Origin: a virus
Lineage: Duplodnaviria; Heunggongvirae; Uroviricota; Caudoviricetes
Reading direction: 5' to 3' (one strand)
DNA: 19,295 nucleotides
IMG/VR virus record: IMGVR_UViG_2563366887_000005
Span: 1-19,295 of that record
A model generated the notes under the pieces. It was not told the DNA's origin, ran no database searches, and saw only the letters and a list, made by a program, of their open reading frames with translations. Both the position numbers and the translations under genes were made by a program. Shown here in pieces: positions 1-17,698 of the stretch. Numbering within the stretch: position 1 is the first letter of the stretch; every line of letters begins with the position of its first letter.

Positions 1-1362
1 ATGTTTAAACCGGAACTCCTTTCCCCGGCGGGAACGCTGAAAAATATGCGTTACGCTTTCGCTTATGGCGCAGATGCTGTTTATGCGGGCCAGCCGCGTT
101 ACTCCCTGCGTGTGCGCAACAACGAATTCAACCACGAAAATCTTCAGCTCGGCATCAATGAAGCCCACGCGCTGGGGAAAAAGTTTTATGTCGTGGTCAA
201 CATTGCACCGCACAACGCCAAGCTGAAAACCTTTATCCGTGACCTGAAACCGGTGGTGGAAATGGGGCCGGATGCGCTGATTATGTCCGATCCAGGGCTG
301 ATTATGCTGGTGCGTGAGCACTTCCCTGAAATGCCGATCCACCTTTCGGTGCAGGCTAACGCCGTGAACTGGGCGACGGTGAAATTCTGGCAGCAAATGG
401 GCCTGACCCGCGTGATCCTCTCTCGCGAGCTGTCGCTGGAAGAGATTGAAGAGATCCGCAATCAGGTGCCGGATATGGAGATCGAGATCTTCGTTCACGG
501 CGCGCTGTGCATGGCCTACTCCGGTCGCTGCCTGCTCTCTGGCTATATCAACAAGCGCGACCCGAACCAGGGCACCTGCACCAACGCCTGCCGCTGGGAG
601 TACAACGTCCAGGAAGGGAAAGAAGATGATGTTGGCAACATCGTACACAAGTACGAGCCGATTCCGGTGCAAAATGTTGAGCCGACGCTGGGTATCGGCG
701 CACCAACCGACAAAGTGTTTATGATCGAAGAGGCCCAGCGTCCGGGCGAGTATATGACCGCGTTTGAAGATGAGCACGGCACTTACATCATGAACTCGAA
801 AGATCTGCGCGCCATCGCCCATGTAGAACGCCTGACCAAAATGGGCGTGCATTCGCTGAAAATCGAAGGCCGTACTAAATCTTTCTACTATTGCGCACGC
901 ACCGCACAGGTTTACCGTAAAGCTATCGATGACGCCGCTGCGGGCAAACCGTTCGATACCAGCCTGCTGGAAACTCTGGAAGGTCTGGCGCATCGTGGCT
1001 ATACCGAAGGTTTCCTTCGTCGTCATACTCACGACGATTATCAGAACTACGAATACGGTTATTCAGTTTCTGACCGCCAGCAGTTTGTTGGTGAGTTTAC
1101 CGGTGAGCGCAAGGGGGACCTCGCAGCGGTAGCGGTGAAAAATAAATTCTCCGTTGGCGACAGCCTTGAGCTGATGACGCCGCAAGGCAACATTAACTTT
1201 ACCCTTGAGCACATGGAAAACGCCAAAGGTGAAGCGATGCCGGTCGCACCAGGCGATGGTTATACTGTGTGGCTCCCGGTCCCGCAGGATCTTGAGCTCA
1301 ATTACGCGCTGCTGATGCGTAATTTCTCCGGGGAAACCACGCGTAACCCCCACGGTAAGTGA
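1..1362 (+). CDS. yegQ: Peptidase U32 family protein YegQ (tRNA hydroxylation protein TrhP), 453 aa
   Basis: Full-length ORF from ATG at 1; translation begins MFKPELLSPAGTLKNMRYAFAYGADAVYAGQPRY, recognised as E. coli YegQ; sits upstream of cyaR as in K-12. Confidence 0.9.
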   Translation: MFKPELLSPAGTLKNMRYAFAYGADAVYAGQPRYSLRVRNNEFNHENLQLGINEAHALGKKFYVVVNIAPHNAKLKTFIRDLKPVVEMGPDALIMSDPGLIMLVREHFPEMPIHLSVQANAVNWATVKFWQQMGLTRVILSRELSLEEIEEIRNQVPDMEIEIFVHGALCMAYSGRCLLSGYINKRDPNQGTCTNACRWEYNVQEGKEDDVGNIVHKYEPIPVQNVEPTLGIGAPTDKVFMIEEAQRPGEYMTAFEDEHGTYIMNSKDLRAIAHVERLTKMGVHSLKIEGRTKSFYYCARTAQVYRKAIDDAAAGKPFDTSLLETLEGLAHRGYTEGFLRRHTHDDYQNYEYGYSVSDRQQFVGEFTGERKGDLAAVAVKNKFSVGDSLELMTPQGNINFTLEHMENAKGEAMPVAPGDGYTVWLPVPQDLELNYALLMRNFSGETTRNPHGK

Positions 1363-1396
1363 TTAATTTCGATTATTTTTCCCGGATGGAAAATTC

Positions 1397-1412
1397 TTAG
1401 AAACCGATCACA
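1397..1412 (+). promoter_or_regulatory. Putative CRP half-site region of the cyaR promoter (TCACA at 1408-1412, weak left half)
   Basis: TCACA lies about 40 nt upstream of the CyaR 5' end with a possible -10 (TATCAT) at 1434-1439; CyaR is known to be CRP-activated. The left half-site matches poorly. Confidence 0.4.
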
Positions 1413-1446
1413 TACAGCTGCATTTATTAAGGTTATCATCCGTTTC

Positions 1447-1533
1447 GCTGAAAAACATAACCCATAAAATGCTAGCTGTACCAGGAACCACCTCCTTAGC
1501 CTGTGTAATCTCCCTTACACGGGCTTATTTTTT
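1447..1533 (+). ncRNA. cyaR: CyaR (RyeE) Hfq-dependent small RNA
   Basis: Sequence GCTGAAAAACATAACCCATAAAATGCTAGCTGTACCAGGAACCACCTCCTTAGCCTGTGTAATCTCCCTTACACGGGCTTATTTTTT matches CyaR as I recall it; ends in a hairpin plus U-tract; located between yegQ and ogr as in K-12. Confidence 0.85.
1507..1533. repeat. attL core (27 bp, AATCTCCCTTACACGGGCTTATTTTTT), reverse complement of the P2 att core, overlapping the cyaR 3' end
   Basis: Exact 27-bp direct repeat of 18792-18818; flanks a prophage with ogr at one end and int at the other. Confidence 0.85.
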
Positions 1534-1597
1534 ACGCGTAATACAATGAAATAAAAGGATTTATTTCTGGTCACGTCCACACATTGACCACATCGAC

Positions 1598-1621
1598 AAA
1601 AAAGCCCCTCGACTGAGGGGC
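1598..1621 (-). terminator. Rho-independent terminator downstream of ogr
   Basis: Hairpin GCCCCTC-GACT-GAGGGGC with an A-run on the + strand (a U-run on the - strand) immediately 3' of the ogr stop. Confidence 0.6.
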
Positions 1622-1634
1622 TTCCTGTTTGTAA

Positions 1635-1853
1635 TTACATCCACATAATTTGCTGCCCTGACGGCAACGGGTGCGGTCTTACGGCGTGGACTTCTCCCGG
1701 CTTCACGATGTATCGCTGTACCGACTCATAAGTGATGAACGTGGCGCTGCAATTCACGTTCTGGCACTGGTGATAACGCTCTTTTGTCGTGTCAGTGATA
1801 TAGCGACTTGTACGCGCATGTGCGGCATGCTGGCATAAAGGACAATGAAACAT
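1635..1853 (-). CDS. ogr: Ogr, P2 late-gene transcriptional activator (zinc-finger), 72 aa
   Basis: Translation MFHCPLCQHAAHARTSRYITDTTKERYHQCQNVNCSATF... carries the Cys4 motif; start taken at the internal ATG (1853) because the 93-aa ORF extension is not part of Ogr. Confidence 0.9.
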   Translation of the reverse strand: MFHCPLCQHAAHARTSRYITDTTKERYHQCQNVNCSATFITYESVQRYIVKPGEVHAVRPHPLPSGQQIMWM

Positions 1854-1934
1854 CGCGAGCACCTCTTCCGGTTTTGTTGATGGTGCCATTTTAGTTAATT
1901 TATCCTTATAAAACAAACAGATAAAATAAAAACA

Positions 1935-3098
1935 TCATTCATCATCTTCTGTTTCGTACTCCACATCAGAAAGCCTGACCTCAAGCTCTAAGGACGTCGT
2001 GAAGCCGCTATTATTCAGAAAATGTGTCACCTTAGTGATGGTCCAGTCCTGCTCGTCTATGACGCGCTTAAAGCCTGACACTCTGACCGGTGTTTCCGTG
2101 TAAATATCTGCACGACCGGTAGCCAGGATGATGGAGAACTCCGCTACACCCCGTTGCAGCTTATCCCACTTCGCCTGAGCGGCACGCATGGCCTGCGCTT
2201 TCGTGGCATATACCGTAGTCAGGGCAAAAACGTTGTCAGCCTCACCGGCCATGTATTCACCTTCGCGCGCTTCCGGTACTTTTGGCGCTTTCTTCTGCGT
2301 GACCGGTTTCGCTTTCGGGTGCTCCAGTGCGCGCAGGTGTTTCTCTTTCTTTTTGCGTTTCAGTTTTACCTTCTGCTTTTGTGGCTTCGGGTCTTTGGTG
2401 TGTAACCACTTTGCCGTTACGCCGGTATAGGCTCCACGGTCAGCAATCGCAAAATGATGGCGGTCGCCGTCGCTGCGGGTGATGGTAATCTGCGGGATTT
2501 TTTTACCGCTGGCCGTCACCCCCTGCCCTGCTTTGAGAAACAGCAGTTCTCCCATTTTTACCGACACCTCGCCGCCGTTGCGTTCAGCAAGACGGGTCAG
2601 GAATTTCACATCAGACTCCTGCGACTGGTCGATGTGCGGGATTTTAATTCCGGCCAGTGACGGAGCGACACTGGCTTCCAGCCTGTTACGGGAGGCTATC
2701 GCCTCAACAATCGCACCGAGCGTGGTGTCATGCCAGGAGCCTTCCCGGCGGGAATTGAGCGTCCCACGAAAATCTGCACTCCGGGCACGGATGGTGACCA
2801 CATCCGGTGCGCCCCGGTGTTCAACCTCATCAACGGTAAATTTCCCTTTGCATACCAGGGCAAAACCTTTCCAGCCGATATACACCGTCAGGACAGCGCC
2901 ACGAACAGGCAGCCCGACCTGCCCGTCGGCATCGTTCAGTTCAATATCAAGCTGGTCAGCCTCAAAGCCCCGGTTATCCGTCAGGGTCATGCTCATCAAA
3001 CGGTCGCTGATATTGCCGGTAATATCCCTGCTGTCGAGCATCAGCATGTAATCCGGCGTCAGCGTACTGCCTGCATCAAATGTCAGCGCATCCAGCAT
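1935..3098 (-). CDS. D: P2 gpD-like tail protein, 387 aa
   Basis: Full-length ORF, MLDALTFDAGSTLTPDYMLMLDSRD...; position between ogr and U matches P2 gene order; start overlaps the U stop by 1 nt. Confidence 0.9.
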   Translation of the reverse strand: MLDALTFDAGSTLTPDYMLMLDSRDITGNISDRLMSMTLTDNRGFEADQLDIELNDADGQVGLPVRGAVLTVYIGWKGFALVCKGKFTVDEVEHRGAPDVVTIRARSADFRGTLNSRREGSWHDTTLGAIVEAIASRNRLEASVAPSLAGIKIPHIDQSQESDVKFLTRLAERNGGEVSVKMGELLFLKAGQGVTASGKKIPQITITRSDGDRHHFAIADRGAYTGVTAKWLHTKDPKPQKQKVKLKRKKKEKHLRALEHPKAKPVTQKKAPKVPEAREGEYMAGEADNVFALTTVYATKAQAMRAAQAKWDKLQRGVAEFSIILATGRADIYTETPVRVSGFKRVIDEQDWTITKVTHFLNNSGFTTSLELEVRLSDVEYETEDDE

Positions 3099-3577
3099 TA
3101 TCCCGCCCCCGTCATACCCGTGAATTTAGTCGCCATACTGCCAGCCTTACCGATGAGCGATTCTGCCTGTTTACCGATATCGCCATAAAGCGCGGCCAGT
3201 GATTCATCCACGCGGGTGAGCGACAGCGTAAAATCAATTTTCCGGGGTGTGCCGTCTGCAAAGAAAATACTCCCTGTTTCACTCACCCTGCTGATGACAT
3301 ACATGCCGTAAATCATGCCGGTGCCATCCAGCAACGGCCACGCCCGGCCTTCCTCTGCCATCAGCCTGAGCGTGGTCATCGTCAGCTTCCCGCCGGTCAG
3401 TTCGGGATAAAGCACGCCGGCAAGCGTCATGTTTTCCTCACCCACACCGAGAAACTGGTAGGCATCCCGTTTACCGATACGGGAATTTGACGGCCAGCGA
3501 TAATCTGATTCACGCTGCATGGTCTGGTGTGGCAGCGTCTGGCGCATAAAAACAAACATACCTAACGCGAGCATCAT
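3098..3577 (-). CDS. U: P2 gpU-like tail protein, 159 aa
   Basis: 159-aa ORF with a strong SD (GGAGG) upstream; order T-U-D as in P2. Confidence 0.9.
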   Translation of the reverse strand: MMLALGMFVFMRQTLPHQTMQRESDYRWPSNSRIGKRDAYQFLGVGEENMTLAGVLYPELTGGKLTMTTLRLMAEEGRAWPLLDGTGMIYGMYVISRVSETGSIFFADGTPRKIDFTLSLTRVDESLAALYGDIGKQAESLIGKAGSMATKFTGMTGAG

Positions 3578-3591
3578 TTTTCGTCACCTCC

Positions 3592-5991
3592 TTAACCGTC
3601 ATGCATCATGCTGGCACGGGCGCGCGCACGTTTATCCCGCTCGTATTTTTCGAGCGCATCCTGTAACTGGCGGTCAAGCTGTGTCCCCGGCGCAGTACCA
3701 CCCGTCAGGCTGATGTGATATTCGTTTTTACTCTGGTCCACATAAGAGCGGCCAGCCGGTGCCGTGACCGGCTGATAAACCTGATAGCCTGCATAAGAGC
3801 TGGTCGCCGGAATATAACCACCGCTGCCATACGTGGCGGCTTGAGTTCTGGCGGCGGTCTGGTCAAGTGTGTCTGACTCTTTGTTGATAACACCGAGTTT
3901 TTCCAGTACCCAGTCAATACCGCTGCGCAGTTTGTTGAACGCATTAAGCGGCAGCATCAACGCGTCAGCCAGTGCCTGCCCGAACATGACACCCGTGTCA
4001 CGGCAACGGTTCAGGGTGTCCTGGGTGGCTTTGACGGGGGCAATCAGGTTTTTAAACCACTGCCACGCGGCCTGTAACTTTTCACCCAGCCAGTCAAACA
4101 GCGGCTTAAGTGGCGTGAACAGTTCCCCCACCGGCGCAAATGCCGCTTTCAGCCCTTCCACCACACCGCCAAAGAATGCGCTGACAGGCTCCCAGTATTT
4201 ACGGATAAGCAACGCCCCGGCGACAATTGCAGCCACCACGGCCACAACCGGCCAGCTAATCGCCCCGATGGCCGTCATAACGGCACTACCAACCGTCGTG
4301 AAGATTGCCCCCATTGCGCCTGCTGCCGCGATGATGGCATTGATGCCAGTGATAACCGGCCAGGCTACAAGACCAATTGCACCGATGATGCCAGTAAGCG
4401 CCAGCGCGCCACCGGCAATGATGCCAATGGTTGACGCCAGTGATTTGTTTTTCTGGATCCAGCCGTCGAGTTTTAACACATACTTTGTGGCCGTCTGTGT
4501 GAGCTTACGCAGTGCGCCTTCCTGCTGGTCAAACAGGTCTGTCCCCACCGCCTCATAAGCGGACTGAAACTCCTTAAAGTCACCGCCGAGGTTGTCCTGC
4601 ATGATATTTACCAGCTCGGCAGTCTTCCCGTCTGAGGCTTTAAACGCAGCGGTCAGTTTGTCCAGCTTTCCGGTTGAGGCGGCAGTCATCAGCACGGCAG
4701 CGGCTGAGCTGGCCTCCTCCCCGAAAATAGTTTTCATGTATTCAGCCTGCTGGGCAGTACCGAGCCGGTTTTTCTCAAAACTGGCCTGCATTTCTTTCAG
4801 AATGGTAAATATTGGCCGGGTGTTTCCTTTGCTGTCTGAGGTTTTCACTCCAAGCTCTTTGAGTGCATCCCATGCTTTTCCCGTCGGTGCCTGCAGGCGG
4901 CTTAACACGGCACGGCTTCCCGTCCCCGCCATTGAGCCTGTGATTTTTGCATCATGCAGCGCCCCGACCATTGCGGCGGTTTCTTCAATGCTGACACCGG
5001 CATTTTTTGCCACAGGTGCGGCATAGGTCAGCGCATCGCTCATGCCGTCAAAATCGGCGGCGGTTTTGTTCATCGTCATGGAGAGGACATCCCCGATATG
5101 AGCGACCTTATCGTTTGAAAGCTGAAAGGCGGATTTCATCCCCATCAGCAGGGCGGCGTTTTCTTCCATTGTGCGACGGTTCGCCAGCGCCATATTCAGC
5201 GTGACCGGCGTTGCCGCCTGAATGGCATCAACATCCCCACCGGCTTTCGCAATAATAATCTGCGCACCGGCTGCATCATCTGCCGAGGCTGCGGTATTGT
5301 CGCCGAGCTGGCGCGCCTGCTTGCGTAGTGCAGCCATTTCGGCGGAGTCTTTTGCCACACCGAGCACAGCCTGCAATTCTGAGTTTTTCTGCGCAAACTC
5401 ATAACCGGGCATCAGCAGCTTAACTCCGGCCATCGTTCCCGCCGCCGCAATCCCCACACCGGCAGCGCCCACTGAGGCCATATTTCCGGCCAGTTCCTTT
5501 CCGGCCTGATAACGCTGTTTTACTGCGTTAAGTTTTGCCTGTTGTGCACTGACACGCGCCAGTGCGTCACGCTGACGGTTAAGCTGTGCGGTGGTTTCAC
5601 TGATACGGTTTTTCAGTCCCTGCTCATCATGTGCAAGATTGCGGGTATTAATTCCCACAGCGGCCAGTTCCCGCTGCTGGCGTTTAACGGAGTCCGTCAG
5701 GCGGTTATATTTCGCCTGTAAGTCCTCCGCCGCACGCTTTGCGGATTCGCGCAGTTCCTCAACCAGAATGACCAGATGCCGCATACTACGCCCCAGCCTG
5801 TCCAGCTTCCAGACTACCAGAGTGTCACCTGCTGATAATGTTCTGAGCAGTTTTTTCAGCCCCGGCCTGTCGGACTTCGTGCCGCTGATTTTGTCCTCAA
5901 AAATCAGCTCACATCCTGCGCACTCCAGCGCATTACGCTGCAATTCCGTGTTCTGGTCATTTGTTGACACGCGTACATAGCCAATAAGCAT
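3592..5991 (-). CDS. T: Chimeric ORF: tail tape-measure protein (gpT-like, N-terminus missing) fused in frame to the first ~82 codons of a serine DNA invertase gene
   Basis: C-terminal ~700 aa show tape-measure features (long Ala/Gln-rich helical region, Gly/Ala-rich hydrophobic stretch IGIIAGGALALTGIIGAIGLVAWPV...). N-terminal MLIGYVRVSTNDQNTELQRNALECAGCELIFEDK...TLVVWKLDRLGRSMRHLVILVEELRE is a Pin/Gin/Hin-type resolvase catalytic domain. Junction estimated near 5745. Confidence 0.75.
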   Translation of the reverse strand: MLIGYVRVSTNDQNTELQRNALECAGCELIFEDKISGTKSDRPGLKKLLRTLSAGDTLVVWKLDRLGRSMRHLVILVEELRESAKRAAEDLQAKYNRLTDSVKRQQRELAAVGINTRNLAHDEQGLKNRISETTAQLNRQRDALARVSAQQAKLNAVKQRYQAGKELAGNMASVGAAGVGIAAAGTMAGVKLLMPGYEFAQKNSELQAVLGVAKDSAEMAALRKQARQLGDNTAASADDAAGAQIIIAKAGGDVDAIQAATPVTLNMALANRRTMEENAALLMGMKSAFQLSNDKVAHIGDVLSMTMNKTAADFDGMSDALTYAAPVAKNAGVSIEETAAMVGALHDAKITGSMAGTGSRAVLSRLQAPTGKAWDALKELGVKTSDSKGNTRPIFTILKEMQASFEKNRLGTAQQAEYMKTIFGEEASSAAAVLMTAASTGKLDKLTAAFKASDGKTAELVNIMQDNLGGDFKEFQSAYEAVGTDLFDQQEGALRKLTQTATKYVLKLDGWIQKNKSLASTIGIIAGGALALTGIIGAIGLVAWPVITGINAIIAAAGAMGAIFTTVGSAVMTAIGAISWPVVAVVAAIVAGALLIRKYWEPVSAFFGGVVEGLKAAFAPVGELFTPLKPLFDWLGEKLQAAWQWFKNLIAPVKATQDTLNRCRDTGVMFGQALADALMLPLNAFNKLRSGIDWVLEKLGVINKESDTLDQTAARTQAATYGSGGYIPATSSYAGYQVYQPVTAPAGRSYVDQSKNEYHISLTGGTAPGTQLDRQLQDALEKYERDKRARARASMMHDG
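5746..5991 (-). pseudogene. Serine DNA invertase (Pin/Gin/Hin/Cin family) 5' fragment; C-terminal HTH DNA-binding domain deleted
   Basis: The catalytic-Ser motif YVRVST is present, but the ORF switches to tape-measure sequence after ...LVEELRE; no invertase C-terminal domain is found anywhere in the window. Confidence 0.75.
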
Positions 5992-6058
5992 GATCATCCC
6001 CCTGAATAAAAACCGGGGATGATGCCAGTTAGCCATTATCTCTGCATTTTCATAAACG

Positions 6059-6092
6059 TTGGTTTGGGAGAAGCGGCAAAACGGAATGTAGG
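6059..6092. repeat. Inverted repeat, left arm (34 bp crossover site of the invertible tail-fibre segment)
   Basis: TTGGTTTGGGAGAAGCGGCAAAACGGAATGTAGG is the exact reverse complement of 7606-7639; encodes the conserved [10 protein letters not shown] junction peptide in both orientations. Confidence 0.8.
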
Positions 6093-6426
6093 TAACGGGC
6101 AAAACCAAATTCCGGATATGGCGGCGTTTGCCAGTTCACTTTCATCAACGGGTTTTCAAAAACTTCCTTCAGGTCTGATTATTCAGTGGGGTATTGTCAG
6201 TGGAGCATCAAACTATACGGTGACTTACCCGGTAACATTCCCAAATCGTTCACTTGCGCTGTTGGCTGTGCCACATACAACGTCGGTGGCTGGTATATCT
6301 GCAATGGGCATAGCGAACTGTTCTGATATCAGCAAATCACAGTTCTATATAATTGTTGGCGGTATATCTCAGGGAAAAATTGTCAAATATGAAAGGTCCT
6401 GTTTTTGGGTAGCAATCGGTGTATAG
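6059..6426 (+). CDS. Alternative tail-fibre C-terminal (variable) domain in the silent orientation (Sv'); no promoter or constant region of its own
   Basis: Shares the [20 protein letters not shown] junction and KLPxGxIxQWG pattern with the opposing 7266-7760 ORF; the reading frame begins inside the inverted repeat. Confidence 0.6.
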
Positions 6427-6434
6427 GTATATCT

Positions 6435-6830
6435 ATGATTTATTTCTCAAAATCGACTAATGGTTTTTTCTTTGATGGTATAAACAGCGACATGCCTGCT
6501 GACATTGTTGAGATAAGTACAGACTTATACAATGAATTAATTGCCGGACAGCAGGAAGGGGGTAAATTAATCACGTCAGATGAAAATGGTTTACCGGTAC
6601 TGAAATCTCCGGCGATTGATTATGTCGCACGTGCTGAAAATCAGCGAATGCAGTTACTTGCTCATGCCGATAATGTCACAGCTGACTGGCGGGTGGAATT
6701 AATGCTTGGTGATATCAGCAGTACAGATAAAGAAAAACTATCTGCCTGGATGGACTACAAAAAAGAAGTAAAAGCCGTCGACACTTCGACGGCTCCTGAG
6801 ATTAGCTGGCCTGAGTTACCGGAGGTGTAG
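6435..6830 (+). CDS. Tail-fibre assembly chaperone (Tfa, gpG/U'-like)
   Basis: Translation MIYFSKSTNGFFFDGINSDMPADIVEISTDLYNEL... has the typical Tfa N-terminus; start taken at ATG 6435 rather than the upstream TTG. Confidence 0.75.
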   Translation: MIYFSKSTNGFFFDGINSDMPADIVEISTDLYNELIAGQQEGGKLITSDENGLPVLKSPAIDYVARAENQRMQLLAHADNVTADWRVELMLGDISSTDKEKLSAWMDYKKEVKAVDTSTAPEISWPELPEV

Positions 6831-7245
6831 GCCATTCAATATCTGGAGCACTGGAGGTATCCACCAGTTCCAGTGCGTCCAGGTAATCCAGCCACAAATT
6901 ATATTGCGCCAGTTCCTCACCTTTCAGACGACCAATAGCTGATTTGCCAGGCCATTGCTTACTGTTCATGTATTCGTTAGCCTGGTTAATTAGTAGCTGT
7001 TTTTCTGATTCAGTAATTTCAATAAGCTCTTCATACGTGGGTGGAGGAATATCTGCCCACGCAGGCAGCCCATCATCTCCGGCAATACGGATTTTTCCTT
7101 GTGGCGGTTCAGCCATAAACTCACTGATAATATTTTGATTTACTTCCTTTGCGTCTGATAAATCCCATCCCTCTGATTTATATTTATCAATCATATCCAC
7201 AGGGAAAAAAGCATTATGCCTTGCGCTATAAACATATTCGTTCAT
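6802..7245 (-). CDS. Tail-fibre assembly chaperone (Tfa, gpG/U-like), partner of the currently expressed fibre C-terminus
   Basis: Translation MNEYVYSARHNAFFPVDMIDKYKSEGWDL...; convergent with the other Tfa, 3' ends overlapping. Confidence 0.75.
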   Translation of the reverse strand: MNEYVYSARHNAFFPVDMIDKYKSEGWDLSDAKEVNQNIISEFMAEPPQGKIRIAGDDGLPAWADIPPPTYEELIEITESEKQLLINQANEYMNSKQWPGKSAIGRLKGEELAQYNLWLDYLDALELVDTSSAPDIEWPTPPVTQAS

Positions 7246-7265
7246 ATAAATCACCCTGAATAAAA

Positions 7266-7760
7266 TTACTCACCAACAGCCCACCAACTGTAATTCATCG
7301 ATACTGTGGAGCTGGTTGATGCAGTTCTGTAAGCGGAATTAAAACCGGTTAGTGTTGGACCTTCTGCAGTCATCACGAATCCCCGTCCAGCGCCTAAAGG
7401 CGCACCACCATCACCAGAATGGGTAAGCATGGCGCAGTCCACTTCTTTAGGAAAAGGGATGCTGAATGTAATTCTCATTGTTTGCGTCGATAATGTCGGC
7501 GTAATCGCACCACGACCATATTGCAGGATTTTCCCGTTGGGTAATTTCATCCATCCATCACCACTGGCAAAAGAGGTCATGTCCGGTATCTGATTTTCCC
7601 CTGTTCCTACATTCCGTTTTGCCGCTTCTCCCAAACCAAGGTATGCGAGAAGACCAGCTACATCCTTTCCACTCAAATTAGTCAGCGTATTGTCCAGCGG
7701 TTGTTTACCTGCCAGCGCATTAAGCATTGTCGTGGCAAAGTTCGGATCGAGGAGCTGCAA
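7266..7760 (-). pseudogene. Tail-fibre protein (gpH-like) 3' fragment: short constant-region remnant plus variable C-terminal domain (Sv); most of the gene deleted
   Basis: The ORF runs through the right inverted repeat ([21 protein letters not shown]) but has only about 40 codons upstream of it before meeting terminase P sequence on the opposite strand. Confidence 0.65.
7606..7639. repeat. Inverted repeat, right arm (34 bp crossover site)
   Basis: Exact reverse complement of 6059-6092. Confidence 0.8.
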
Positions 7761-8378
7761 CGCTGCATGGTCGACACGCTGGAAGAATGGGAAGACTATG
7801 CGCCGTTTGCCACCAATCCGTTCGGCTCACGTCCGGTATGGATTGGTTACGACCCGTCACACCGTGGCGACAGCGCCGGATGCGTGGTACTGGCACCGCC
7901 GGTGGTGGCCGGTGGCAAATTCAGGATCCTTGAGCGTCACCAGTGGAAAGGCATGGACTTTGCCACCCAGGCAGAATCCATCCGCAAACTCACCGAAAAA
8001 TATAACGTTGAATACATCGGTATTGATGCCACCGGCCTCGGTGTCGGTGTGTTCCAGCTCGTGCGCTCGTTCTATCCCGCCGCTCGCGATATCCGCTACA
8101 CGCCGGAAATGAAAACCGCAATGGTCCTCAAGGCAAAAGACGTCATCCGCCGTGGCTGTCTGGAATATGACGTCAGCGCCACCGACATCACCAGCTCGTT
8201 TATGGCTATCCGCAAGACCATGACCAGCAGCGGACGCAGCGCCACCTATGAGGCCAGCCGCAGCGAGGAAGCCAGCCACGCCGACCTCGCCTGGGCGACC
8301 ATGCACGCTCTGTTAAATGAGCCACTCACCGCCGGTATCAGCACCCCGCTGACATCCACCATTCTGGAGTTTTACTGA
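7701..8378 (+). pseudogene. P: Terminase large subunit (gpP-like) C-terminal fragment; 5' two-thirds deleted
   Basis: The ORF ends 1 nt into the portal gene start (TGATG overlap), matching the P-Q operon arrangement, but only about 225 codons remain where P2 P is about 590 aa. The 5' boundary is uncertain (junction somewhere in 7640-7760). Confidence 0.7.
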
Positions 8379-9412
8379 TGAGCAAGAAAAAAAGGAAAAC
8401 ACCGCAACCTGCGGCAAAAAAAATGACCGCCAGCGCCCCGAAAATGGAGGCATTCACCTTTGGTGAGCCGGTGCCGGTACTCGACCGCCGTGACATTCTG
8501 GATTACGTCGAATGCATCAGTAACGGCAGATGGTATGAGCCACCAATCAGCTTTACCGGTCTGGCAAAAAGCCTGCGTGCTGCCGTGCATCACAGCTCAC
8601 CGATTTACGTCAAACGCAATATTCTGGCTTCAACGTTTATCCCGCACCCGTGGCTGTCCCAGCAGGATTTCAGCCGCTTTGTGCTGGATTTTCTGGTGTT
8701 CGGTAATGCGTTTCTGGAAAAGCGTTACAGCACCACTGGTAAGGTCATCAGACTGGAAACCTCACCGGCAAAATATACCCGCCGTGGTGTGGAAGAGGAT
8801 GTTTACTGGTGGGTGCCGTCCTTCAACGAGCCGACAGCCTTCGCGCCCGGCTCCGTGTTTCACCTGCTGGAGCCGGATATTAATCAGGAGCTGTACGGCC
8901 TGCCGGAATATCTCAGCGCCCTTAATTCTGCCTGGCTGAATGAGTCGGCCACGCTGTTTCGCCGCAAGTATTACGAAAACGGCGCTCATGCCGGATACAT
9001 CATGTACGTCACCGATGCCGTGCAGGATCGCAACGATATCGAAATGCTTCGCGAAAACATGGTGAAGTCAAAAGGCCGCAATAACTTTAAAAATCTGTTT
9101 CTCTATGCCCCGCAGGGGAAAGCCGACGGCATTAAAATTATCCCCCTCAGTGAAGTGGCAACGAAAGACGATTTTTTTAATATCAAAAAAGCCAGCGCCG
9201 CTGACCTGCTGGACGCGCACCGCATCCCCTTTCAGTTGATGGGCGGCAAGCCGGAGAACGTCGGGTCGCTGGGTGATATTGAGAAAGTGGCAAAGGTCTT
9301 TGTCCGCAATGAGCTTATCCCGTTACAGGACAGGATCCGCGAGATAAACGGCTGGCTTGGTCAGGAGGTCATCCGCTTTAAAAACTACTCACTGGACACT
9401 GACAACGGTTGA
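8378..9412 (+). CDS. Q: Portal protein (gpQ-like), 344 aa
   Basis: Full-length 344-aa ORF immediately upstream of cos, as in P2; basic N-terminus MSKKKRKTPQPAAKK. Confidence 0.85.
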   Translation: MSKKKRKTPQPAAKKMTASAPKMEAFTFGEPVPVLDRRDILDYVECISNGRWYEPPISFTGLAKSLRAAVHHSSPIYVKRNILASTFIPHPWLSQQDFSRFVLDFLVFGNAFLEKRYSTTGKVIRLETSPAKYTRRGVEEDVYWWVPSFNEPTAFAPGSVFHLLEPDINQELYGLPEYLSALNSAWLNESATLFRRKYYENGAHAGYIMYVTDAVQDRNDIEMLRENMVKSKGRNNFKNLFLYAPQGKADGIKIIPLSEVATKDDFFNIKKASAADLLDAHRIPFQLMGGKPENVGSLGDIEKVAKVFVRNELIPLQDRIREINGWLGQEVIRFKNYSLDTDNG

Positions 9413-9417
9413 ACATC

Positions 9418-9439
9418 GCCGCCTGCGGGCGGCTTTTTT
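9418..9439 (+). terminator. Rho-independent terminator after Q
   Basis: GCCGCC-TGCG-GGCGGC hairpin followed by TTTTTT. Confidence 0.7.
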
Positions 9440-9581
9440 ACAGCCCGTCATCACGCCCTCACACGCTCACCACCGTACAAAACATCCCGCAGACACACCA
9501 ACACCCCAACGGGCACACTAAACGCCGCCACGACGCGCTCAGACGCTGAAAAAATAAAATCAGCACCACCGCCAGCGCGCA

Positions 9582-9600
9582 GTGCTTTCCCCGCCTCGCC
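9582..9600. other. cos site (19-nt cohesive-end sequence GTGCTTTCCCCGCCTCGCC, reverse complement of the P2/P4 cos GGCGAGGCGGGGAAAGCAC)
   Basis: Exact match to the P2 cohesive end as I recall it, located about 170 bp past the Q stop in the expected orientation. Confidence 0.75.
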
Positions 9601-9838
9601 CGCCCGCTTCATGGGGCGATTTTAATGCAGTGGCATGATTTAGCCGAATCCGCGCCATTGTTGACATTGATGTTTTGATATGGATATGGCGTAAGCATGC
9701 GAATTCATTCAAGATGATGCAAGAATGATGAAATTATGGTACAGATCGATTAGCCATAATATGCCCCACGTTGTTACATGTGGTTCATAAGAGTTATGGC
9801 TCATAGGGATTTATACAAAATATATATAGGTAATTATC

Positions 9839-10903
9839 ATGTCAGGTGAAACTCAAAATATTTCAGCAATGGCAGAAAAAATATCTTCAGACCTATTCAA
9901 ATGGTTTAAGTGGGAACTCGTTGGTCCAACCAATGAAAACTTTCCATGCATGAAAAAAGATCAACATAAAACACTAGCCGGAACACATCCAACTGATGTT
10001 GTATTTTCTTATAAAGATCCCTATTTGAATAGAACTATTTTTTTAAATACTGATTTAAAAAGCTATATTAAAGGCTCAATTACAGCAACTAAAATGCGCA
10101 ATGCTTTAGTATCTCTGGCTAATTCTATTGACTGTGCTCAAGGTTGTAAAGAATGGAAGGAGCGTTATTCTTATAAAAATGGTGCATCAGAAGTCAGAGG
10201 CATGCTCTTTGTATACAACCATGACGGAGACTTTGACCAATCTTTTTATGATGTATTCTATCAATCTCACAATACTGAAACTGATAAGAAGAAAAGAGGT
10301 ATTAATCTTGACAATATACCGGTAAGAGCCGGTCAAAAAATACACATCATTGAACCAAGAACTATAAACTACTTGCAGTCAATAATCTGCGATTTATCAC
10401 AACTAAGCCACAAAAGAGAGTTTCCACTCGGTAAAAAATATCAATTCTTTTACCCAGACCTTTCACTACATAAAGTAAGCGGTTCGCCCGAAGAACTTCC
10501 AGCAACTGTAGAATTATTGACAGGCCCATTCCTTATTATAAAACATAATGACGTCAGACATTGCAATGAAGAAACATCACAATGGGAAACTACATTTAAA
10601 CATGGTTACATTATTTATTACAATGGCGAAGGAAAAAACGAGCTAGAGTTTATTTATATTCTAGACACGCTATCTAAATATCAATTACTAGATGGCAATG
10701 AAAATATAAGAATTAGAATAGTTAACCCTAACATACATAAAGATGTTCGCAGTATTTTTATGCGTGCGAAGGATAGTTATTGTCAAGAATGGGGGTTCGA
10801 TGAACATAAAAAAACGATAATAGATGCTATTGATTTTCAACAGGTAGAATTTACAAAGCCTCGTTTTAGTTCGGTAGAGATTGGTTGGGAGCGACAGGCA
10901 TGA
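9839..10903 (+). CDS. Hypothetical protein, 354 aa; first gene of the hotspot cassette; possible N-terminal PD-(D/E)xK-like nuclease motif (D53 ... D72-L-K74)
   Basis: Long ORF in an A+T-rich island; no resemblance to any P2 protein I know; stop overlaps the next start (ATGA). The motif assignment is from visual inspection only. Confidence 0.7.
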   Translation: MSGETQNISAMAEKISSDLFKWFKWELVGPTNENFPCMKKDQHKTLAGTHPTDVVFSYKDPYLNRTIFLNTDLKSYIKGSITATKMRNALVSLANSIDCAQGCKEWKERYSYKNGASEVRGMLFVYNHDGDFDQSFYDVFYQSHNTETDKKKRGINLDNIPVRAGQKIHIIEPRTINYLQSIICDLSQLSHKREFPLGKKYQFFYPDLSLHKVSGSPEELPATVELLTGPFLIIKHNDVRHCNEETSQWETTFKHGYIIYYNGEGKNELEFIYILDTLSKYQLLDGNENIRIRIVNPNIHKDVRSIFMRAKDSYCQEWGFDEHKKTIIDAIDFQQVEFTKPRFSSVEIGWERQA

Positions 10904-12012
10904 AAATTGGATTATATAGTGTAAATGATAAGGCAATGTTTGACGCATTGAATCAAACTAAAGTCACTCATGAAGATATGAAAAGTCTCTTTTTTAAAAG
11001 AGGAATGATTATATCCAAAGAGACTAAACGAAAAACATTGGCTTTGGATTTTTCCAGATACTATCATGGCTATTCTGATTTTGAATTTCTTTCAAACATA
11101 CTCGGTTCTGTTGGGCGGAGAGAAAAAGTATCAATTAACATTATTAATACAAATATAGATAAAAATAGTATGGAAAATACTATTAAATCTATTTGTGAAG
11201 ATCTTCAAAAAGAAGGCGATATAACTAATATAAATTACACCGAGAATGGTTTTGAAGTATCAATCAAATATGTGAAACTAGATTTCAAAATGAGCGAGTT
11301 TCGCCAATCCTCATCACGTGAAGCCAAAATACAAGTTGAAATGAATGAAAGCGGTGAATTTATCACCCGTTTCCCTCAAAATGCTAAAGCAAGGGAATTC
11401 AACGAGCGCCTCGTGGAGAAGATCAAAGAAGACAACAATGAGGATCCAGCCAGTCTTGATGAAATTTCGCTCGAAACTGTTAAATCACCAGCGGAAAGAA
11501 GCAAGTTTTTTGAGCAACTAATCTCAAGCATACCTAACTACAAATGCATTGACGTATCGGATGTATACGTTACGCATCCAATTCTTGAGTCAAATAAGTC
11601 TAACGAAAATGAAGATGATTCTGATGATGACGATACAATTATTGACACAGGATATCATATCTCCAAAGCTTCATTAAAAGGGCGCAGCGTTCTTGACTCT
11701 CTCGAGTTTAAAGAGTTGTTAGGAAAAGGATTTTATATTACCAAAATCATTTGGAGTTCTGTTGTTGACACTTATAAAGACTCGGACAAATATGAATTCG
11801 AGGCTCAATTTGTCGACCCAGATAATTGCAAGTTATTCTCGTATATCGTTCGCGGTGTTTATAAGTACAAAAATATAAACGAATATGCAAATCGTCAAAA
11901 TGTAGATAAAGAGAAGGAAAAACTGCTATTATTAGCACTTGAAAAAACCGCTCGCGAAATTTCAAACAGTATTATCGCCTCAAACACAATTGAGGTTGTT
12001 ACTGATAAATAA
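10900..12012 (+). CDS. Hypothetical protein, 370 aa; second gene of the hotspot cassette; contains an acidic DDSDDDD stretch
   Basis: ATG at 10900 overlaps the upstream TGA (translational coupling), with GGGAG 8 nt upstream; the ORF-track start at 10885 is a TTG and is less likely. Confidence 0.7.
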   Translation: MKIGLYSVNDKAMFDALNQTKVTHEDMKSLFFKRGMIISKETKRKTLALDFSRYYHGYSDFEFLSNILGSVGRREKVSINIINTNIDKNSMENTIKSICEDLQKEGDITNINYTENGFEVSIKYVKLDFKMSEFRQSSSREAKIQVEMNESGEFITRFPQNAKAREFNERLVEKIKEDNNEDPASLDEISLETVKSPAERSKFFEQLISSIPNYKCIDVSDVYVTHPILESNKSNENEDDSDDDDTIIDTGYHISKASLKGRSVLDSLEFKELLGKGFYITKIIWSSVVDTYKDSDKYEFEAQFVDPDNCKLFSYIVRGVYKYKNINEYANRQNVDKEKEKLLLLALEKTAREISNSIIASNTIEVVTDK

Positions 12013-12023
12013 AAGGAGTTGTT

Positions 12024-12695
12024 ATGAAAACAAAATGGTTTACTGCCAACTTCCCTGCTGGACTTGATAGTTTATATCAGTCTATCATTAACACTCCTTT
12101 TGATAGTGATAAAGGCTGGGGATTTAGTATCAACTCATATGAAGAAAATGCAATATCATCTCGATACATCGAGAAAGTAGAGGTCAACGAGATAATCGTT
12201 GATCCATATGGAAACGAGACTCAATATACACAGCTAAAATATATTCAATTTAACTTTTGGCTTTACACAACAAAAGGTAAAAACTTCATCTTAATCATTG
12301 AGTCGCCTCCCAGAAGCATTAAGAACTTCATATCAAACATAATTAAATCAACACATTCTGATTTTAATGTGTCAAATCTCAACATCAAAATTGAGGACTT
12401 CATTTATTTCCTGACCCCGCACTTTGAAAAAATACAAGTGCACAAGGCAAAATTAAAAGACTTAACGTTTAGCAAACACACATCCGGCATACTGGAACTT
12501 GAGTCATCAAGTGACGCACTTATGGAAATAAGAAACATTTTCAAAAATGCAAATTTTACAATTGATAAAGTTAAACTTAATGTTAAGGATGTGACCGGTT
12601 ATGAGTCATTAGAAATTAACACAAATGGGTCCATTTCACTTTCAGAGCAAATTTTTGACAAGGTGTATCTAACCATAGAAAGATTTGCCCTTTAA
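12024..12695 (+). CDS. Hypothetical protein, 223 aa; third gene of the hotspot cassette
   Basis: Strong SD (AAGGAG) 6 nt upstream of the ATG; 11-nt gap after gene 2; followed by a terminator. Confidence 0.7.
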   Translation: MKTKWFTANFPAGLDSLYQSIINTPFDSDKGWGFSINSYEENAISSRYIEKVEVNEIIVDPYGNETQYTQLKYIQFNFWLYTTKGKNFILIIESPPRSIKNFISNIIKSTHSDFNVSNLNIKIEDFIYFLTPHFEKIQVHKAKLKDLTFSKHTSGILELESSSDALMEIRNIFKNANFTIDKVKLNVKDVTGYESLEINTNGSISLSEQIFDKVYLTIERFAL

Positions 12696-12735
12696 GTTAA
12701 CAATACAATTCAATTCTTTTGATGTAATAAAAACG

Positions 12736-12766
12736 GCCTCATTAAAAATGAGGCTTATCGTTTTAT
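12736..12766 (+). terminator. Rho-independent terminator ending the hotspot operon
   Basis: GCCTCATT-AAA-AATGAGGC hairpin followed by a T-rich tract (TTATCGTTTTATT). Confidence 0.65.
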
Positions 12767-12860
12767 TATTGTAGCCATGCCATCTGGTTTTCACCTTTTC
12801 CTCCAGCACAGTATTAATACACACCTTATATAGTTTTATCTCTTAGATATTCACACTATT

Positions 12861-15140
12861 TCAATCTATTACAGTTGTGAACCCTGGCCATCCATCAGCG
12901 ACCGGATAAGCGAATTTTTTCCCGTCATAATTTACGGTCGCGCCACGCGCCAGCGCCTCAAGCTCCCATCGCTGTGGCCTGATACCGTTCTGAGCAAGGT
13001 CAACGCGGATACGGGTAATTTGCATTCGTTCCGACCGAGTCAGTCTGGCCGATGGCGCTATTTCATGCGGTTTTAACGGGCTTCCGTTTCTTTGCTGACG
13101 GTTTGGTCTTCTCAGACCGTGTTTTAATGCACCTCTGAGCGCCCTCACGACCTCCTGGTCATTCCATTCGATAACACCGTCATCTACCAGATTAAGCACT
13201 GCTACGGCGTGTTCAGAAGGCGTGGGAGCCGGTAACGAAGTATCACCACCGGTGAGCTTTCCACAGTTATTGACAGGACTCCGAGGCGCGGCGATGCCGC
13301 TTTTTAAAGTCAAAGGCTCAACGACCGGAACTTTCGGCACAATGCGCCAGTCCGTCGTTCTGGTGATATGAATATGACGCGCGCCGAGATGCGGCGCGTA
13401 AATGCCGACCACTCTCTCGACTTCTTCCTCGTACTCGTTAACGTCATCCGACGGGCTACGGGCGACCCTGACAGTCTGACAATCGCGCGGGACATTTGCC
13501 CCGCCCTGCGCGCTGATATACAACGCAAAATCACCACTGTCTGCGGCGGCGCGTGCAGCCTCGACGCGTTCGTCAAACTCATCAGCAATGCTGACGCCGC
13601 GAGGCAATTTGCGTAGCTCACGGTAAGCCCCCATTGTCGGCAGGCCAACCGTTTTAAATTGCGGAATGCGCCACGTTGACGCCCATGCGGTAACAGCCGC
13701 GGCAGTATCTTTCAGCGGCCTGCCAGTATCGTTATCGAGCTGACCATCCAGTGCATAGCCGTCGATGTTTTTTGAGATGTATTTCGCGATATATCCCGCA
13801 GCACCGCCCCGGTTAAGGTGTTTTGCCTGAAAACGGTTTCGCGCAGCGCCTCTTTCGTCACCATCCTCTTTGAGCGCATAGCGACGCATGATTTCGATAA
13901 TCTGGTTACGCTGGCGTGGATTACAAAAAAGCATCATATGCCAGTGCGGCGTTCCGTCGTGGTGTGGCTCGACGACACGCAAACCGTAGACCTGTAAATC
14001 ATTATCCTTGAATGCCGTGCGCATCAGGCTCCAGATATGGCAGAGATAACGCTGCGCATCCTTTGGATTAAATGCCTCATCATTCCAGCCGTGATTTAGC
14101 TGGACGGTTTTACTTTCGCCTTTTCCGACCTGACGTGTCGGGTGATACTTTGACGGCGCGGTCAGCGTGATAAACATCCCCACATCACCCTCTGCGGCGG
14201 CATAACGCTCAATTCCGGCGATGGTGTTCATCAGCTCCATCCGGCGAATTTCAGGATTAGAAATACTGCCCATCACCTTACTGATAAGGTCGATGCGCTC
14301 GCCGGTTTCCCTGTTTTCAAGGTCACACGATTTAAGAAATTCCAGATTTGCCTGGCGGCGTGCACGCACATCACGAATGGCATGTTTACTGGCATAAGGA
14401 GAACGGTCTTTATTGACCTCCCCGACAGCAATCAGTAACGCCTCATGCCAGCGCATACGCTGGCCTTTAAGCTGATGAGTCCACCACTCATCGTTAAACA
14501 GACGGGCAATGGCAGAATATGCCTGCCTCGTGGTTATCTGTCCTTTACGGTATTTTTTCCAGTAGAGCGGGGAAATATTGAAAGCACGTGCAGCGCCAGC
14601 AACATGACCATACAGGTGAGTCTGCGCCTCATCCGTAAACAGCGATTCTTTTTCGCCATGTGCATCAACCCATGCATCGCAGAGTTCCTCATACATCATG
14701 AAAAGCTGCGATGAGATACGGGCGGCAAACTTTTTCAGCTCCTTGTCATTCATCCCCGGCAGGCGCGCATAGTGGTCACGCTCTGCCAGAAACAGTAACG
14801 ACGCGTCGGTGTTCATTTCATGGCGCTGATTCACGCGCTCAATGCGCGGCCATAAACGACGCTGAAAAGTGGATGTGAGGAAATAAAACCCGTGCACCGG
14901 GCTTTTATTGCGCCGGATGTAGTCATAGCGTGAAGTAAACAGCGAGCGCAAAAAGTAAGGCAGGCGGTTAATCGTGGATAAAACACCTTGCACCTGACGC
15001 ATCTCGTCACGTGTAAGGGGTCTTTCGCGCCCGACAGCCTCGCGTGGCGCGTTCCATGCATAAGCACCGGTAAACGCCTTACCGGTGCCTGCGGCAAATG
15101 CTGACGGAGGGACAAAACGCCCGGAGGCTTTAACGGCCAT
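12861..15140 (-). CDS. A: P2 gpA-like replication initiation endonuclease (rolling-circle initiator)
   Basis: Translation MAVKASGRFVPPSAFAAGTGKAFTGAYAWNAPREAVGRERPLTRDEMRQVQGVL... matches P2 A along its length as I recall it; start taken at ATG 15140 rather than the upstream TTG. Confidence 0.9.
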   Translation of the reverse strand: MAVKASGRFVPPSAFAAGTGKAFTGAYAWNAPREAVGRERPLTRDEMRQVQGVLSTINRLPYFLRSLFTSRYDYIRRNKSPVHGFYFLTSTFQRRLWPRIERVNQRHEMNTDASLLFLAERDHYARLPGMNDKELKKFAARISSQLFMMYEELCDAWVDAHGEKESLFTDEAQTHLYGHVAGAARAFNISPLYWKKYRKGQITTRQAYSAIARLFNDEWWTHQLKGQRMRWHEALLIAVGEVNKDRSPYASKHAIRDVRARRQANLEFLKSCDLENRETGERIDLISKVMGSISNPEIRRMELMNTIAGIERYAAAEGDVGMFITLTAPSKYHPTRQVGKGESKTVQLNHGWNDEAFNPKDAQRYLCHIWSLMRTAFKDNDLQVYGLRVVEPHHDGTPHWHMMLFCNPRQRNQIIEIMRRYALKEDGDERGAARNRFQAKHLNRGGAAGYIAKYISKNIDGYALDGQLDNDTGRPLKDTAAAVTAWASTWRIPQFKTVGLPTMGAYRELRKLPRGVSIADEFDERVEAARAAADSGDFALYISAQGGANVPRDCQTVRVARSPSDDVNEYEEEVERVVGIYAPHLGARHIHITRTTDWRIVPKVPVVEPLTLKSGIAAPRSPVNNCGKLTGGDTSLPAPTPSEHAVAVLNLVDDGVIEWNDQEVVRALRGALKHGLRRPNRQQRNGSPLKPHEIAPSARLTRSERMQITRIRVDLAQNGIRPQRWELEALARGATVNYDGKKFAYPVADGWPGFTTVID

Positions 15141-15405
15141 ATGAGCCAAAAGCCTCTGAACAACGCTTGCTGAGTTGCTCAACCTGCGCGTTTAAATCAG
15201 CAAAAGACTTTGCGCTTCCGGTCAGAATATCGTGATGCATCAGGCCGGAAACGAGCTGGCTTAATTTCGGGTAATAACCAACCACCGCCAGCCATTCCTG
15301 ACCGGCGTTTTTACCGCTTTCCGCTCTCTTTTTCTCGTGGAGAATAAACTGAAAGCTGTCACTGGTAACGACATAACGTTCGCCAATTTCGATACGAATA
15401 CTCAT
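15130..15405 (-). CDS. P2 Orf83-like small protein
   Basis: 91-aa ORF translationally coupled to orf82 (ATGA overlap) and abutting A; position matches the P2 orf80-83 block. Confidence 0.65.
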   Translation of the reverse strand: MSIRIEIGERYVVTSDSFQFILHEKKRAESGKNAGQEWLAVVGYYPKLSQLVSGLMHHDILTGSAKSFADLNAQVEQLSKRCSEAFGSYGR

Positions 15406-15626
15406 GCCATTCTCCGGTAATGTTTGTTTTTTGCTTCAAAGACTGACTGACAGGAAACACAACGCGTGGCTGACGGATAAGCCGCACGACGGGCAGCAGG
15501 TATTGGCGCGTCACACTCTTCGCAAACCAGCGCAGAAACACCGCAATGCTTTACCCTTGCCGCGTTAATCTGGCGCTCCAGTAATTCAGCCTTTTGTTCC
15601 TGAATAAAATCTACGTTGTCCGGCAT
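15402..15626 (-). CDS. TraR/DksA-family C4 zinc-finger protein (P2 Orf82-like)
   Basis: Translation has CEECDAPIP...CVSCQ, two CxxC pairs; 74 aa. Confidence 0.75.
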   Translation of the reverse strand: MPDNVDFIQEQKAELLERQINAARVKHCGVSALVCEECDAPIPAARRAAYPSATRCVSCQSVFEAKNKHYRRMA

Positions 15627-15928
15627 TACCAGCTCCTTTTGTCGTTCAGCTTCTTAAATTCATCAGCGCAATAGCTGGCAATTTCTGTCGTTAATTTCGT
15701 CAGTTCATCCACGGAGGAGATTTGCTTGTGAAATACAGCGCGTTTAACAAGTAAATTGACCACATCAGACAGGAGATTTAATTCGTTCTGATAAATCGCG
15801 ATAACAGACTCAGTTATTTCGCGTTTTTCTTTATCAAGACCAAGTTGAATAAGAGACAAATCACCATTTTTCATAACGGCGATTTTTAAGGCGTTATTCA
15901 GTAATACAACTGAACGAGAACAGGACAT
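15626..15928 (-). CDS. P2 Orf81-like hypothetical protein
   Basis: ORF with ATG at 15928 overlapping the upstream stop; conserved position. Confidence 0.6.
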   Translation of the reverse strand: MSCSRSVVLLNNALKIAVMKNGDLSLIQLGLDKEKREITESVIAIYQNELNLLSDVVNLLVKRAVFHKQISSVDELTKLTTEIASYCADEFKKLNDKRSW

Positions 15929-16152
15929 CAAAGCACCTCCCCGCGAGACAATCCGATATTGTGAAATTTTTCCGACTCCTGACTGAGCAGCTCGACTATC
16001 TCCACGCGGGATAACTCCGCCTTTGTGATGTGGCGAATCATGGCGTCAAGATGAGAAGAAAAGCGCGTCGCTGCGTCGGCCTGTGCTTCGGTTCTGGCCT
16101 GTTGCAGCAGTAATGCGTATTTACCGCACTGATTTTCAGAAACTGTATGCAT
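15928..16152 (-). CDS. P2 Orf80-like hypothetical protein
   Basis: ATG at 16152 with a GGAG SD; the ORF-track start (TTG at 16185) is less likely. Confidence 0.6.
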
Positions 16153-16215
16153 GACTTTCTCCAGGCAAAAAGAAGCCCCGCACAATTAAGTGCGTTAAAA
16201 ACTCTGGTTAATTAC

Positions 16216-16883: not shown

Positions 16884-16893
16884 ACGGTTCTCC

Positions 16894-17583: not shown

Positions 17584-17698
17584 CAATTCATCGTGAATAT
17601 ATTCATCACAAGTGCCTACTATTGGTGGCTAAATTTCAGCCACCACGAAAAAAGCGATTAGTAGTCGCAAAAAAACACACCACTCGGAGGGTTTTCTG

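Follow-up and report, generated by a model that had tools for sequence, protein, structure and literature searches.

The stretch of DNA analysed here, referred to as the window, comprises positions 1 to 19,295 of the virus record IMGVR_UViG_2563366887_000005. It is a P2-like (Peduoviridae) prophage remnant of Escherichia coli KTE197, located at the yegQ/ogrK-yegR locus (GCA_000352945.1, scaffold KB733185.1), and it contains an invertible tail-fibre cassette. The remnant is very likely a recently decayed prophage in which a Pin/Gin-type, Fis-dependent fibre switch has been left intact between two illegitimate deletions and in which the resident invertase is dead. What the switch needs in cis is still in place, namely two inverted 26-bp pix-type sites that share a TT core and, about 100 bp from the left one, the 5' part of the invertase gene, which very probably carries the enhancer. 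The invertase itself is inactive, being cut to 82 residues, devoid of the E helix and of the DNA-binding domain, and fused to the tape-measure protein. With this enzyme dead, the segment between 6059/6060 and 7638/7639 could therefore be inverted only by a compatible Pin-family invertase of another prophage acting together with host Fis. Since no head, baseplate, sheath, tube or fibre shaft is left, the switch would no longer set the host range of a phage. Invertible tail-fibre switches of this class are well known, and the present one is an orphaned example in a prophage whose decay is itself ordinary. An interpretation made earlier from the letters of the window (the sequence-only reading) is supported in its essentials, with the corrections described below.

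Inverted repeats and crossover sites

The cassette is bounded by an exact inverted repeat of 34 nt, TTGGTTTGGGAGAAGCGGCAAAACGGAATGTAGG, with its left arm at 6059-6092 and its right arm, as the reverse complement, at 7606-7639. The perfect 34-bp repeats that had been claimed are present at their full length, and the chance expectation of such a pair in 19.3 kb is about 6e-13. The invertible segment measures 1581 bp. Imperfect complementarity extends 40-odd bases further inward, giving arms of 89 nt (81%), because the N-terminal parts of the two alternative fibre tips are related.

The left 26-bp crossover site, on the invertase side, is found at 6047-6072 and reads TTTTCATAAACG-TT-GGTTTGGGAGAA, with the core at 6059-6060. 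The right site, on the fibre side, is found at 7626-7651 and reads TTCTCGCATACC-TT-GGTTTGGGAGAA as the reverse complement, with the core at 7638-7639. Both are of the pix type, lie in inverted orientation and have an identical TT core dinucleotide, which places them among the sites of the Gin, Pin, Cin and Hin enzymes. Read from outside to inside, the 34-bp repeat begins with the core dinucleotide, which leaves the outer half-sites of 12 bp beyond it; the repeat itself holds the 2-bp core, the inner half-site and 20 bp of common coding sequence. The recombination sites are intact, as had been stated, with the correction that the functional sites reach 12 bp beyond the perfect repeats. The left site is identical at 26/26 positions to the pinE-proximal site of e14 in strain K-12, and the right site at 23/26 positions to the stfP-side site of the same element, whose repeats are quoted as TTGGTTTGGGAGAAGG (PMC12529663).

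The e14 P segment with its invertase PinE (stfP-tfaP-tfaE-stfE-pinE) has the same order of tip, chaperone, chaperone and tip between inverted pix sites and an adjoining invertase gene, and its core and inner half-site, TTGGTTTGGGAGAAG, are common to the window. In both cases a short leader open reading frame (ORF) runs from the invertase side across the site, and both cassettes lie in defective prophages. However, e14 has an intact pinE, a StfP of 209 residues, a 16-bp repeat and a 1797-bp segment, whereas the window has an invertase of 82 residues, a fibre constant part of about 36 codons and a 1581-bp segment, and belongs to a P2-like and not a lambdoid element. The organisation also resembles the G segment of Mu with its invertase Gin, and the C segment of P1 with Cin, in which inverted sites enclose alternative fibre C-termini (S/S') and chaperones (U/U') and the adjacent invertase gene has a conserved 5' coding region. 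The exact repeat of Mu G is likewise 34 bp long. The likeness to Mu had been drawn from organisation and repeat length together. The first of these holds, whereas the equal length is a coincidence, because the exact repeats of related cassettes measure 15, 16, 25 or 34 bp. The composition of the repeats is also different, as that of Mu includes the entire 26-bp gix site TTATCCAAAACCTCGGTTTACAGGAA. In addition, the core of Mu is TC and that of the window TT, the Mu segment is about 3 kb long, and Gin is intact.

The invertase remnant and the enhancer region

Alignment to an intact 197-residue invertase shows that only 82 of the 197 codons are left (5746-5991, minus strand). They form the beginning of an in-frame fusion ORF of 799 residues (3592-5991, minus strand; ELH48205.1), in which invertase residues 1-82 are followed by all of the tape-measure protein downstream of about residue 98, and in which the Pfam Resolvase N-terminal domain and PhageMin_Tail are found in one ORF. 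The stub reads MLIGYVRVSTNDQ...VEELRE before the tape-measure sequence follows in frame. It retains the catalytic-serine motif VRVSTNDQ and is without the E helix and the helix-turn-helix DNA-binding domain; a complete invertase is not encoded here, the Resolvase match spanning profile positions 2-92 of 145. The invertase had been described as reduced to a 5' fragment, and this is correct, except that the fragment is not free-standing and continues in frame into the tape-measure gene. In GenBank, the fusion ORF bears the name 'DNA-invertase lambdoid prophage e14'. Transcription of this ORF and of the U and D genes presumably starts at the invertase promoter now.

In the Gin, Hin and Cin systems, a Fis-dependent enhancer is located in the 5' coding part of the invertase gene. 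Such an enhancer has two Fis sites about 48 bp apart and lies about 100 bp from one crossover site. Its position within the invertase genes was reportedly established in 1985 by Kahmann, by Johnson and Simon, and by Huber. The location in gin, hin and cin has also been documented (PMC3798978). In the window, the region homologous to the enhancer of Gin/Hin-type genes lies at 5907-5970, as aligned with pinE and gin, and the retained 246 bp of the invertase gene align closely with both genes over this region. A 15-mer conforming to the strict Fis consensus, GCGCAGGATGTGAGC, occupies 5907-5921 (coding positions 71-85) and is found at the same coding position in all four genes compared. The expected proximal Fis site would be GTGTCAACAAATGAC at 5956-5970, which lies 49 bp from this match and about 97 bp from the left core, and CGTAATGCG sits between the two. 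A Fis-dependent enhancer has very probably been retained, judging from this conservation. The sequence-only reading had gone only so far as to consider this possible, and the region on which it depended is indeed present and conserved with pinE and gin.

Orientation of the cassette and possible inversion in trans

Invertase-bearing P2-like relatives, such as Escherichia phage Cartapus, pro483 and the O157:H7 prophage in SS TX 754-1, represent the parental type. In these elements the invertase gene has the fibre cassette on one side and the sheath gene FI on the other. Their cassettes share 95-98% identity with that of the window and have the same crossover sites. They differ from the window in that the fibre (474 residues in Cartapus), the invertase and the set of virion genes are all complete; about 16-17 kb of this are missing from the window. 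The cassette and both flanks (5746-7721) are 98.4% identical, without insertions or deletions, to an intact O157:H7 prophage (L001), and for the cassette by itself the identity to other genomes reaches 99.6%. This identity to the cassettes of intact prophages (98-99.6%) indicates that the decay is recent.

The orientation of the cassette was surveyed in complete E. coli genomes with two 655-nt queries covering the invertase-side junction, either as it stands in the window or as it would read after inversion, and matches of at least 80% coverage were counted. Beside intact invertases, the same cassette was found in the orientation of the window in 60 genomes and flipped in 277. The O157:H7 genomes AC-3 and AC-5 (NZ_CP169544.1 and NZ_CP169546.1), which come from the same greenhouse-soil source, carry it in opposite orientations at identical coordinates (18963-19617). 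The difference between these sibling isolates points directly to an inversion that took place recently in an intact prophage. As both orientations occur in relatives, including this pair, a cassette of this kind with an intact invertase is an active switch.

For the orphan segment, an enzyme from elsewhere would be required, and cross-complementation among Pin, Gin, Cin and Hin is established. Inversion of the e14 P segment in trans is reported for each of PinQ, PinR and PinE, and the same study cites the action of Fin of Fels-2 on the Salmonella H segment (PMC12529663). The mechanism in these cases is the one proposed here, namely a Pin-family enzyme from elsewhere acting on pix-type sites. 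The difference is that inversion was measured and a phenotype reported for them, whereas the window is known from sequence alone. Flipping in trans is plausible because the left site is identical at every position to the site that PinE uses in e14. The suggestion that the segment could still flip if a Pin/Gin-type invertase were supplied in trans is therefore backed by this identity, by the two orientations in relatives and by the cited experiments, and the orphan segment would be expected to have kept its competence.

Several observations weigh against a switch that still works. The orphan locus is known from one assembly in one orientation, and since this assembly of KTE197 is a short-read scaffold, the orientation depicted may be arbitrary. 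The strict Fis consensus is fitted by only one of the two expected sites, and the enhancer function is deduced from homology. A homologue of the cassette's own type of invertase was detected by megablast in only 2040 of 5426 complete E. coli genomes (about 38%; full length in 593), a count that misses more divergent Pin-family genes. The cassette might accordingly be locked, either for want of a compatible invertase in KTE197 or through inadequate cis elements, and the segment would then be frozen, decaying DNA. The limited spread of the invertase type would agree with this, as would a resident invertase without its DNA-binding domain and the restriction of the fusion protein and both junctions to one strain, which leaves the population without evidence of flipping in the orphan state. 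Nevertheless, many E. coli carry the pin genes of e14, Rac or Qin, which counts against a locked cassette. So do the perfect sites and core dinucleotides, which match the site used by PinE, the retained enhancer region, and the ability of Pin-family enzymes to act across systems and prophages (PMC12529663). A locked cassette is regarded as a real possibility, although its chances are put at clearly less than even, and a switch that is intact in cis and deprived of its own enzyme remains the preferred explanation.

The orphan switch is alone of little weight, since it adds one more snapshot of prophage decay, a fibre switch minus its enzyme and its fibre. As a clean natural substrate, it may serve for asking whether the invertases of other prophages act on orphan sites. 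This question has become more interesting since PinQ was reported to flip the e14 cassette and to block the adsorption of T2 (PMC12529663).

Cassette genes and a possible function in the host

The cassette comprises four ORFs. Fibre tip A (135 residues; 6019-6426, plus strand) and fibre tip B (164 residues; 7266-7760, minus strand) both match Pfam Gp53-like_C. Tail-fibre assembly chaperone A (131 residues; 6435-6830, plus strand) was identified by Pfam Caudo_TAP and by gene call and has the same length in the intact relative L001. Chaperone B (147 residues; 6802-7245, minus strand) also matches Caudo_TAP and is 52% identical to TfaP of e14 over 112 aligned residues (BLASTP). The chaperone genes are convergent and overlap by 29 nt (6802-6830). 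The two alternative fibre C-termini and two convergent chaperones read between the repeats are borne out by these domain matches. All four ORFs are intact and have the same lengths as in the intact O157:H7 prophage. The arrangement is that of an invertible host-range cassette, with two tips and two chaperones in opposite orientation inside and a constant remnant outside the right site.

This remnant of the constant region of the fibre gene (gpH) covers 7640-7748 on the minus strand, about 36 codons, and begins at the motif DPNFATTM, as aligned to H of Cartapus and to L001. The ORF of tip B opens in antisense terminase sequence and crosses first the constant remnant and then the right crossover site before it reaches the tip itself. 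The fibre constant region had been given as about 40 codons. Its truncation is confirmed, and 40 codons do precede the repeat in the ORF, but only about 36 of them are fibre sequence and the rest is antisense terminase. On the other side of the cassette, tip A is preceded by a leader of 13 codons, MMPVSHYLCIFINVGLGE, whose ATG is placed 28 bp from the start of the invertase gene, before the crossover site. Its frame passes over the left site and continues in the tip that happens to face it. It resembles the leader of e14 stfE, MPFACYFFIFINVGLGE, and in e14 an arrangement of this kind gives rise to the adsorption blocker StfE2 that has been reported.

The sequence TGGCATCAT, which reads ATGATGCCA on the other strand, lies at 6010-6030 between the invertase start and the crossover site and supplies the leader ATG. 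It is kept in the window, in the O157 prophage and in e14, and largely in Mu; ATGATGCCA is conserved upstream of pinE and gin. A hairpin with a 12-bp stem followed by a T run was found at 6770-6797, reported on the minus strand, inside the 3' end of chaperone gene A. It ends about 5 bp before the overlap of the chaperone genes and may be a terminator for this convergent pair. A scan for promoters and terminators revealed nothing above shuffled sequences adjoining the cassette ORFs, and no consensus promoter beside them.

The intactness of the four ORFs raises the question of whether the cassette has been kept for a function in the host like that of the e14 P segment. In e14, the chimeric tip StfE2, formed after inversion by PinQ, is reported to block the adsorption of another phage (PMC12529663), and only the ORF architecture of that system is common to the window. 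On this explanation, short tips, expressed either from the leader ORF beside the invertase or from the ORF with the fibre remnant, would mask surface receptors, inversion by a Pin enzyme in trans would switch the tip, and the cell would be protected from phages. The e14 precedent (PMC12529663) and the layout of leader and crossover site within one ORF, conserved with e14 stfE, could be taken in its favour. By itself, however, neither the leader nor the presumed transcription of the fusion ORF from the invertase promoter speaks for a function. The 98-99.6% identity to the cassettes of intact prophages is explained by recent deletion without any selection, and the configuration occurs in a single strain. 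The tips are also only weakly related to StfP and StfE (tip A and StfP are 35% identical over 84 residues), neither tip ORF has a consensus promoter beside it, and PADLOC gave no match for the fibre tips or for the invertase-tape-measure fusion protein. Retention for such a function is therefore judged improbable. Slightly less probable still is the fuller proposal that the orphan cassette, like that of e14, supplies short fibre-tip proteins (from 6019-6426 and from 7266-7760) that mask receptors against other phages and are switched by the Pin enzyme of another prophage, which could explain its survival between the deletions. The claim that no function is left for the switch to serve accordingly stands for virion host range; beyond that it is probable rather than certain, given the anti-phage role reported for the analogous e14 cassette.

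Two deletions and their junctions

The deletions were mapped with the intact O157:H7 prophage L001 and a second remnant at the yegQ locus (L002) as references. On the left, homology to the invertase extends from the ATG at 5991 down to 5746 and then stops, and the junction between invertase and gene T lies at about 5744-5748, with the microhomology TTC. The first deletion, of about 2.9 kb, removed the 3' two-thirds of the invertase gene, the sheath gene FI, the tube gene FII, gene E and the beginning of T. On the right, homology to the complete 474-residue fibre of phage Cartapus ends at 7748. Homology to intact terminases begins at 7741-7747, and the perfect overlap with the fibre sequence is TC. 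What follows is the surviving 3' portion of the large terminase gene, about 210 codons that encode the nuclease domain of gpP (7747-8378, plus strand; Pfam Terminase_6C). The second deletion took away the 5' part of H, the baseplate, lysis and head genes as far as O, and two-thirds of P from its 5' end; by P2-type gene order it would measure about 13-14 kb. The microhomology is 2-3 nt at both junctions. An origin of the deletions through action of the invertase at pseudo-sites was considered and rejected; the surroundings of the junctions are unlike pix half-sites, and the true sites are 108 bp and about 310 bp away.

Neither junction is spanned in any complete E. coli genome. By exact-protein look-up, the fusion protein and the 164-residue ORF containing the fibre remnant were each found on one contig only. 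Exact 30-mers across the junctions were absent from metagenome contigs (both junctions) and from species-representative genomes (the junction between invertase and T). The look-up of the 203-residue truncated terminase product returned two further contigs. One of them (L010) has a different deletion, in which D is joined to P further upstream, and the other (L011), only 1 kb long, shows no junction.

It is highly improbable that the deletions are chimeras of a short-read assembly in which two P2-like prophages were collapsed and that the real genome has an intact invertase and fibre gene, for although GCA_000352945.1 is a scaffold-level assembly and P2-like prophages are often multi-copy in E. 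coli (a median of two matching places per genome), the 2-3 nt of microhomology are far under any assembler overlap, there are no Ns, the invertase-T fusion is in frame, the independent complete genome of E. coli B2C has the junction between fibre and terminase at the same position, and other P2-like remnants at the same or similar loci have decayed independently.

The P2-like element of E. coli B2C (L006, NZ_CP035874.1, complete genome) was compared with the window over 6976-7150, corresponding to 7625-7800 of the window. The fibre remnant is joined to the terminase at the identical nucleotide position (window 7747 equals 7098 of L006). The fibre remnant of B2C is 98% identical to window 7625-7746, and from the first base past the join its terminase and portal genes are only about 69% identical to those of the window. 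Each of the two terminase remnants is essentially identical to intact terminases of its own type. B2C differs from the window in the interior of the cassette and has kept its invertase and tail genes intact. Chance is an unlikely explanation for two independent deletions that end at the same points in both genes, and the common junction in a second, unrelated genome hints at a recurrent deletion hotspot or at an unknown mechanism. A longer hidden microhomology behind this junction was rejected, as the Cartapus fibre reads ...ASALGN|DPNF... at this point and the perfect overlap is 2-3 nt (TTCnGnTC being imperfect). If confirmed, a hotspot between fibre and terminase would be informative on how P2-like prophages become inactivated.

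Prophage context and cargo genes

The ends of the window are chromosomal E. coli DNA, with yegQ/trhP and ogrK on the left and yegR beside a P2-type integrase on the right. Between yegQ and yegR, the P2-like gene order is ogr, D, U, truncated T, cassette, truncated P, Q, A and int. Gene D (1935-3098; Phage_GPD) and gene U (3098-3577; Phage_P2_GpU) precede the fusion ORF. An intact portal gene, Q (8378-9412, plus strand; Pfam Phage_portal), follows the terminase remnant, and the replication gene A (12861-15182; Phage_GPA), a repressor-like helix-turn-helix gene and int (17699-18712; Phage_integrase) complete the series. The gene set and its order are those of Peduoviridae, as seen from the Pfam matches to Ogr_Delta, Phage_GPD, Phage_P2_GpU, PhageMin_Tail, Terminase_6C, Phage_portal, Phage_GPA and Phage_integrase. 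Comparison with the intact prophage shows that the remnant has lost its genes for head, lysis, baseplate, sheath and tube.

Other remnants are found at comparable positions. Z217-4 (L002), at the same yegQ/ogrK locus, has another set of deletions and an intact invertase, and in contig L010 (Logan SRR21826592) gene D is joined straight to the terminase remnant. P2-like prophages at these loci seem to decay repeatedly through large internal deletions.

Three consecutive cargo genes on the plus strand (9839-12695), encoding proteins of 354, 375 and 223 residues, fill the interval from the portal/cos region to gene A. Their products match three PADLOC models that are likewise consecutive, Hp1, Hp2 and Hp3 (E = 2e-63, 4e-37 and 5e-8), and the first carries the tag PF26115 PDDEXK_GAPS4 in a precomputed table. 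Their position is a known cargo hotspot of P2, and the three genes could form a candidate anti-phage system. E. coli B2C has a syntenic but divergent trio.

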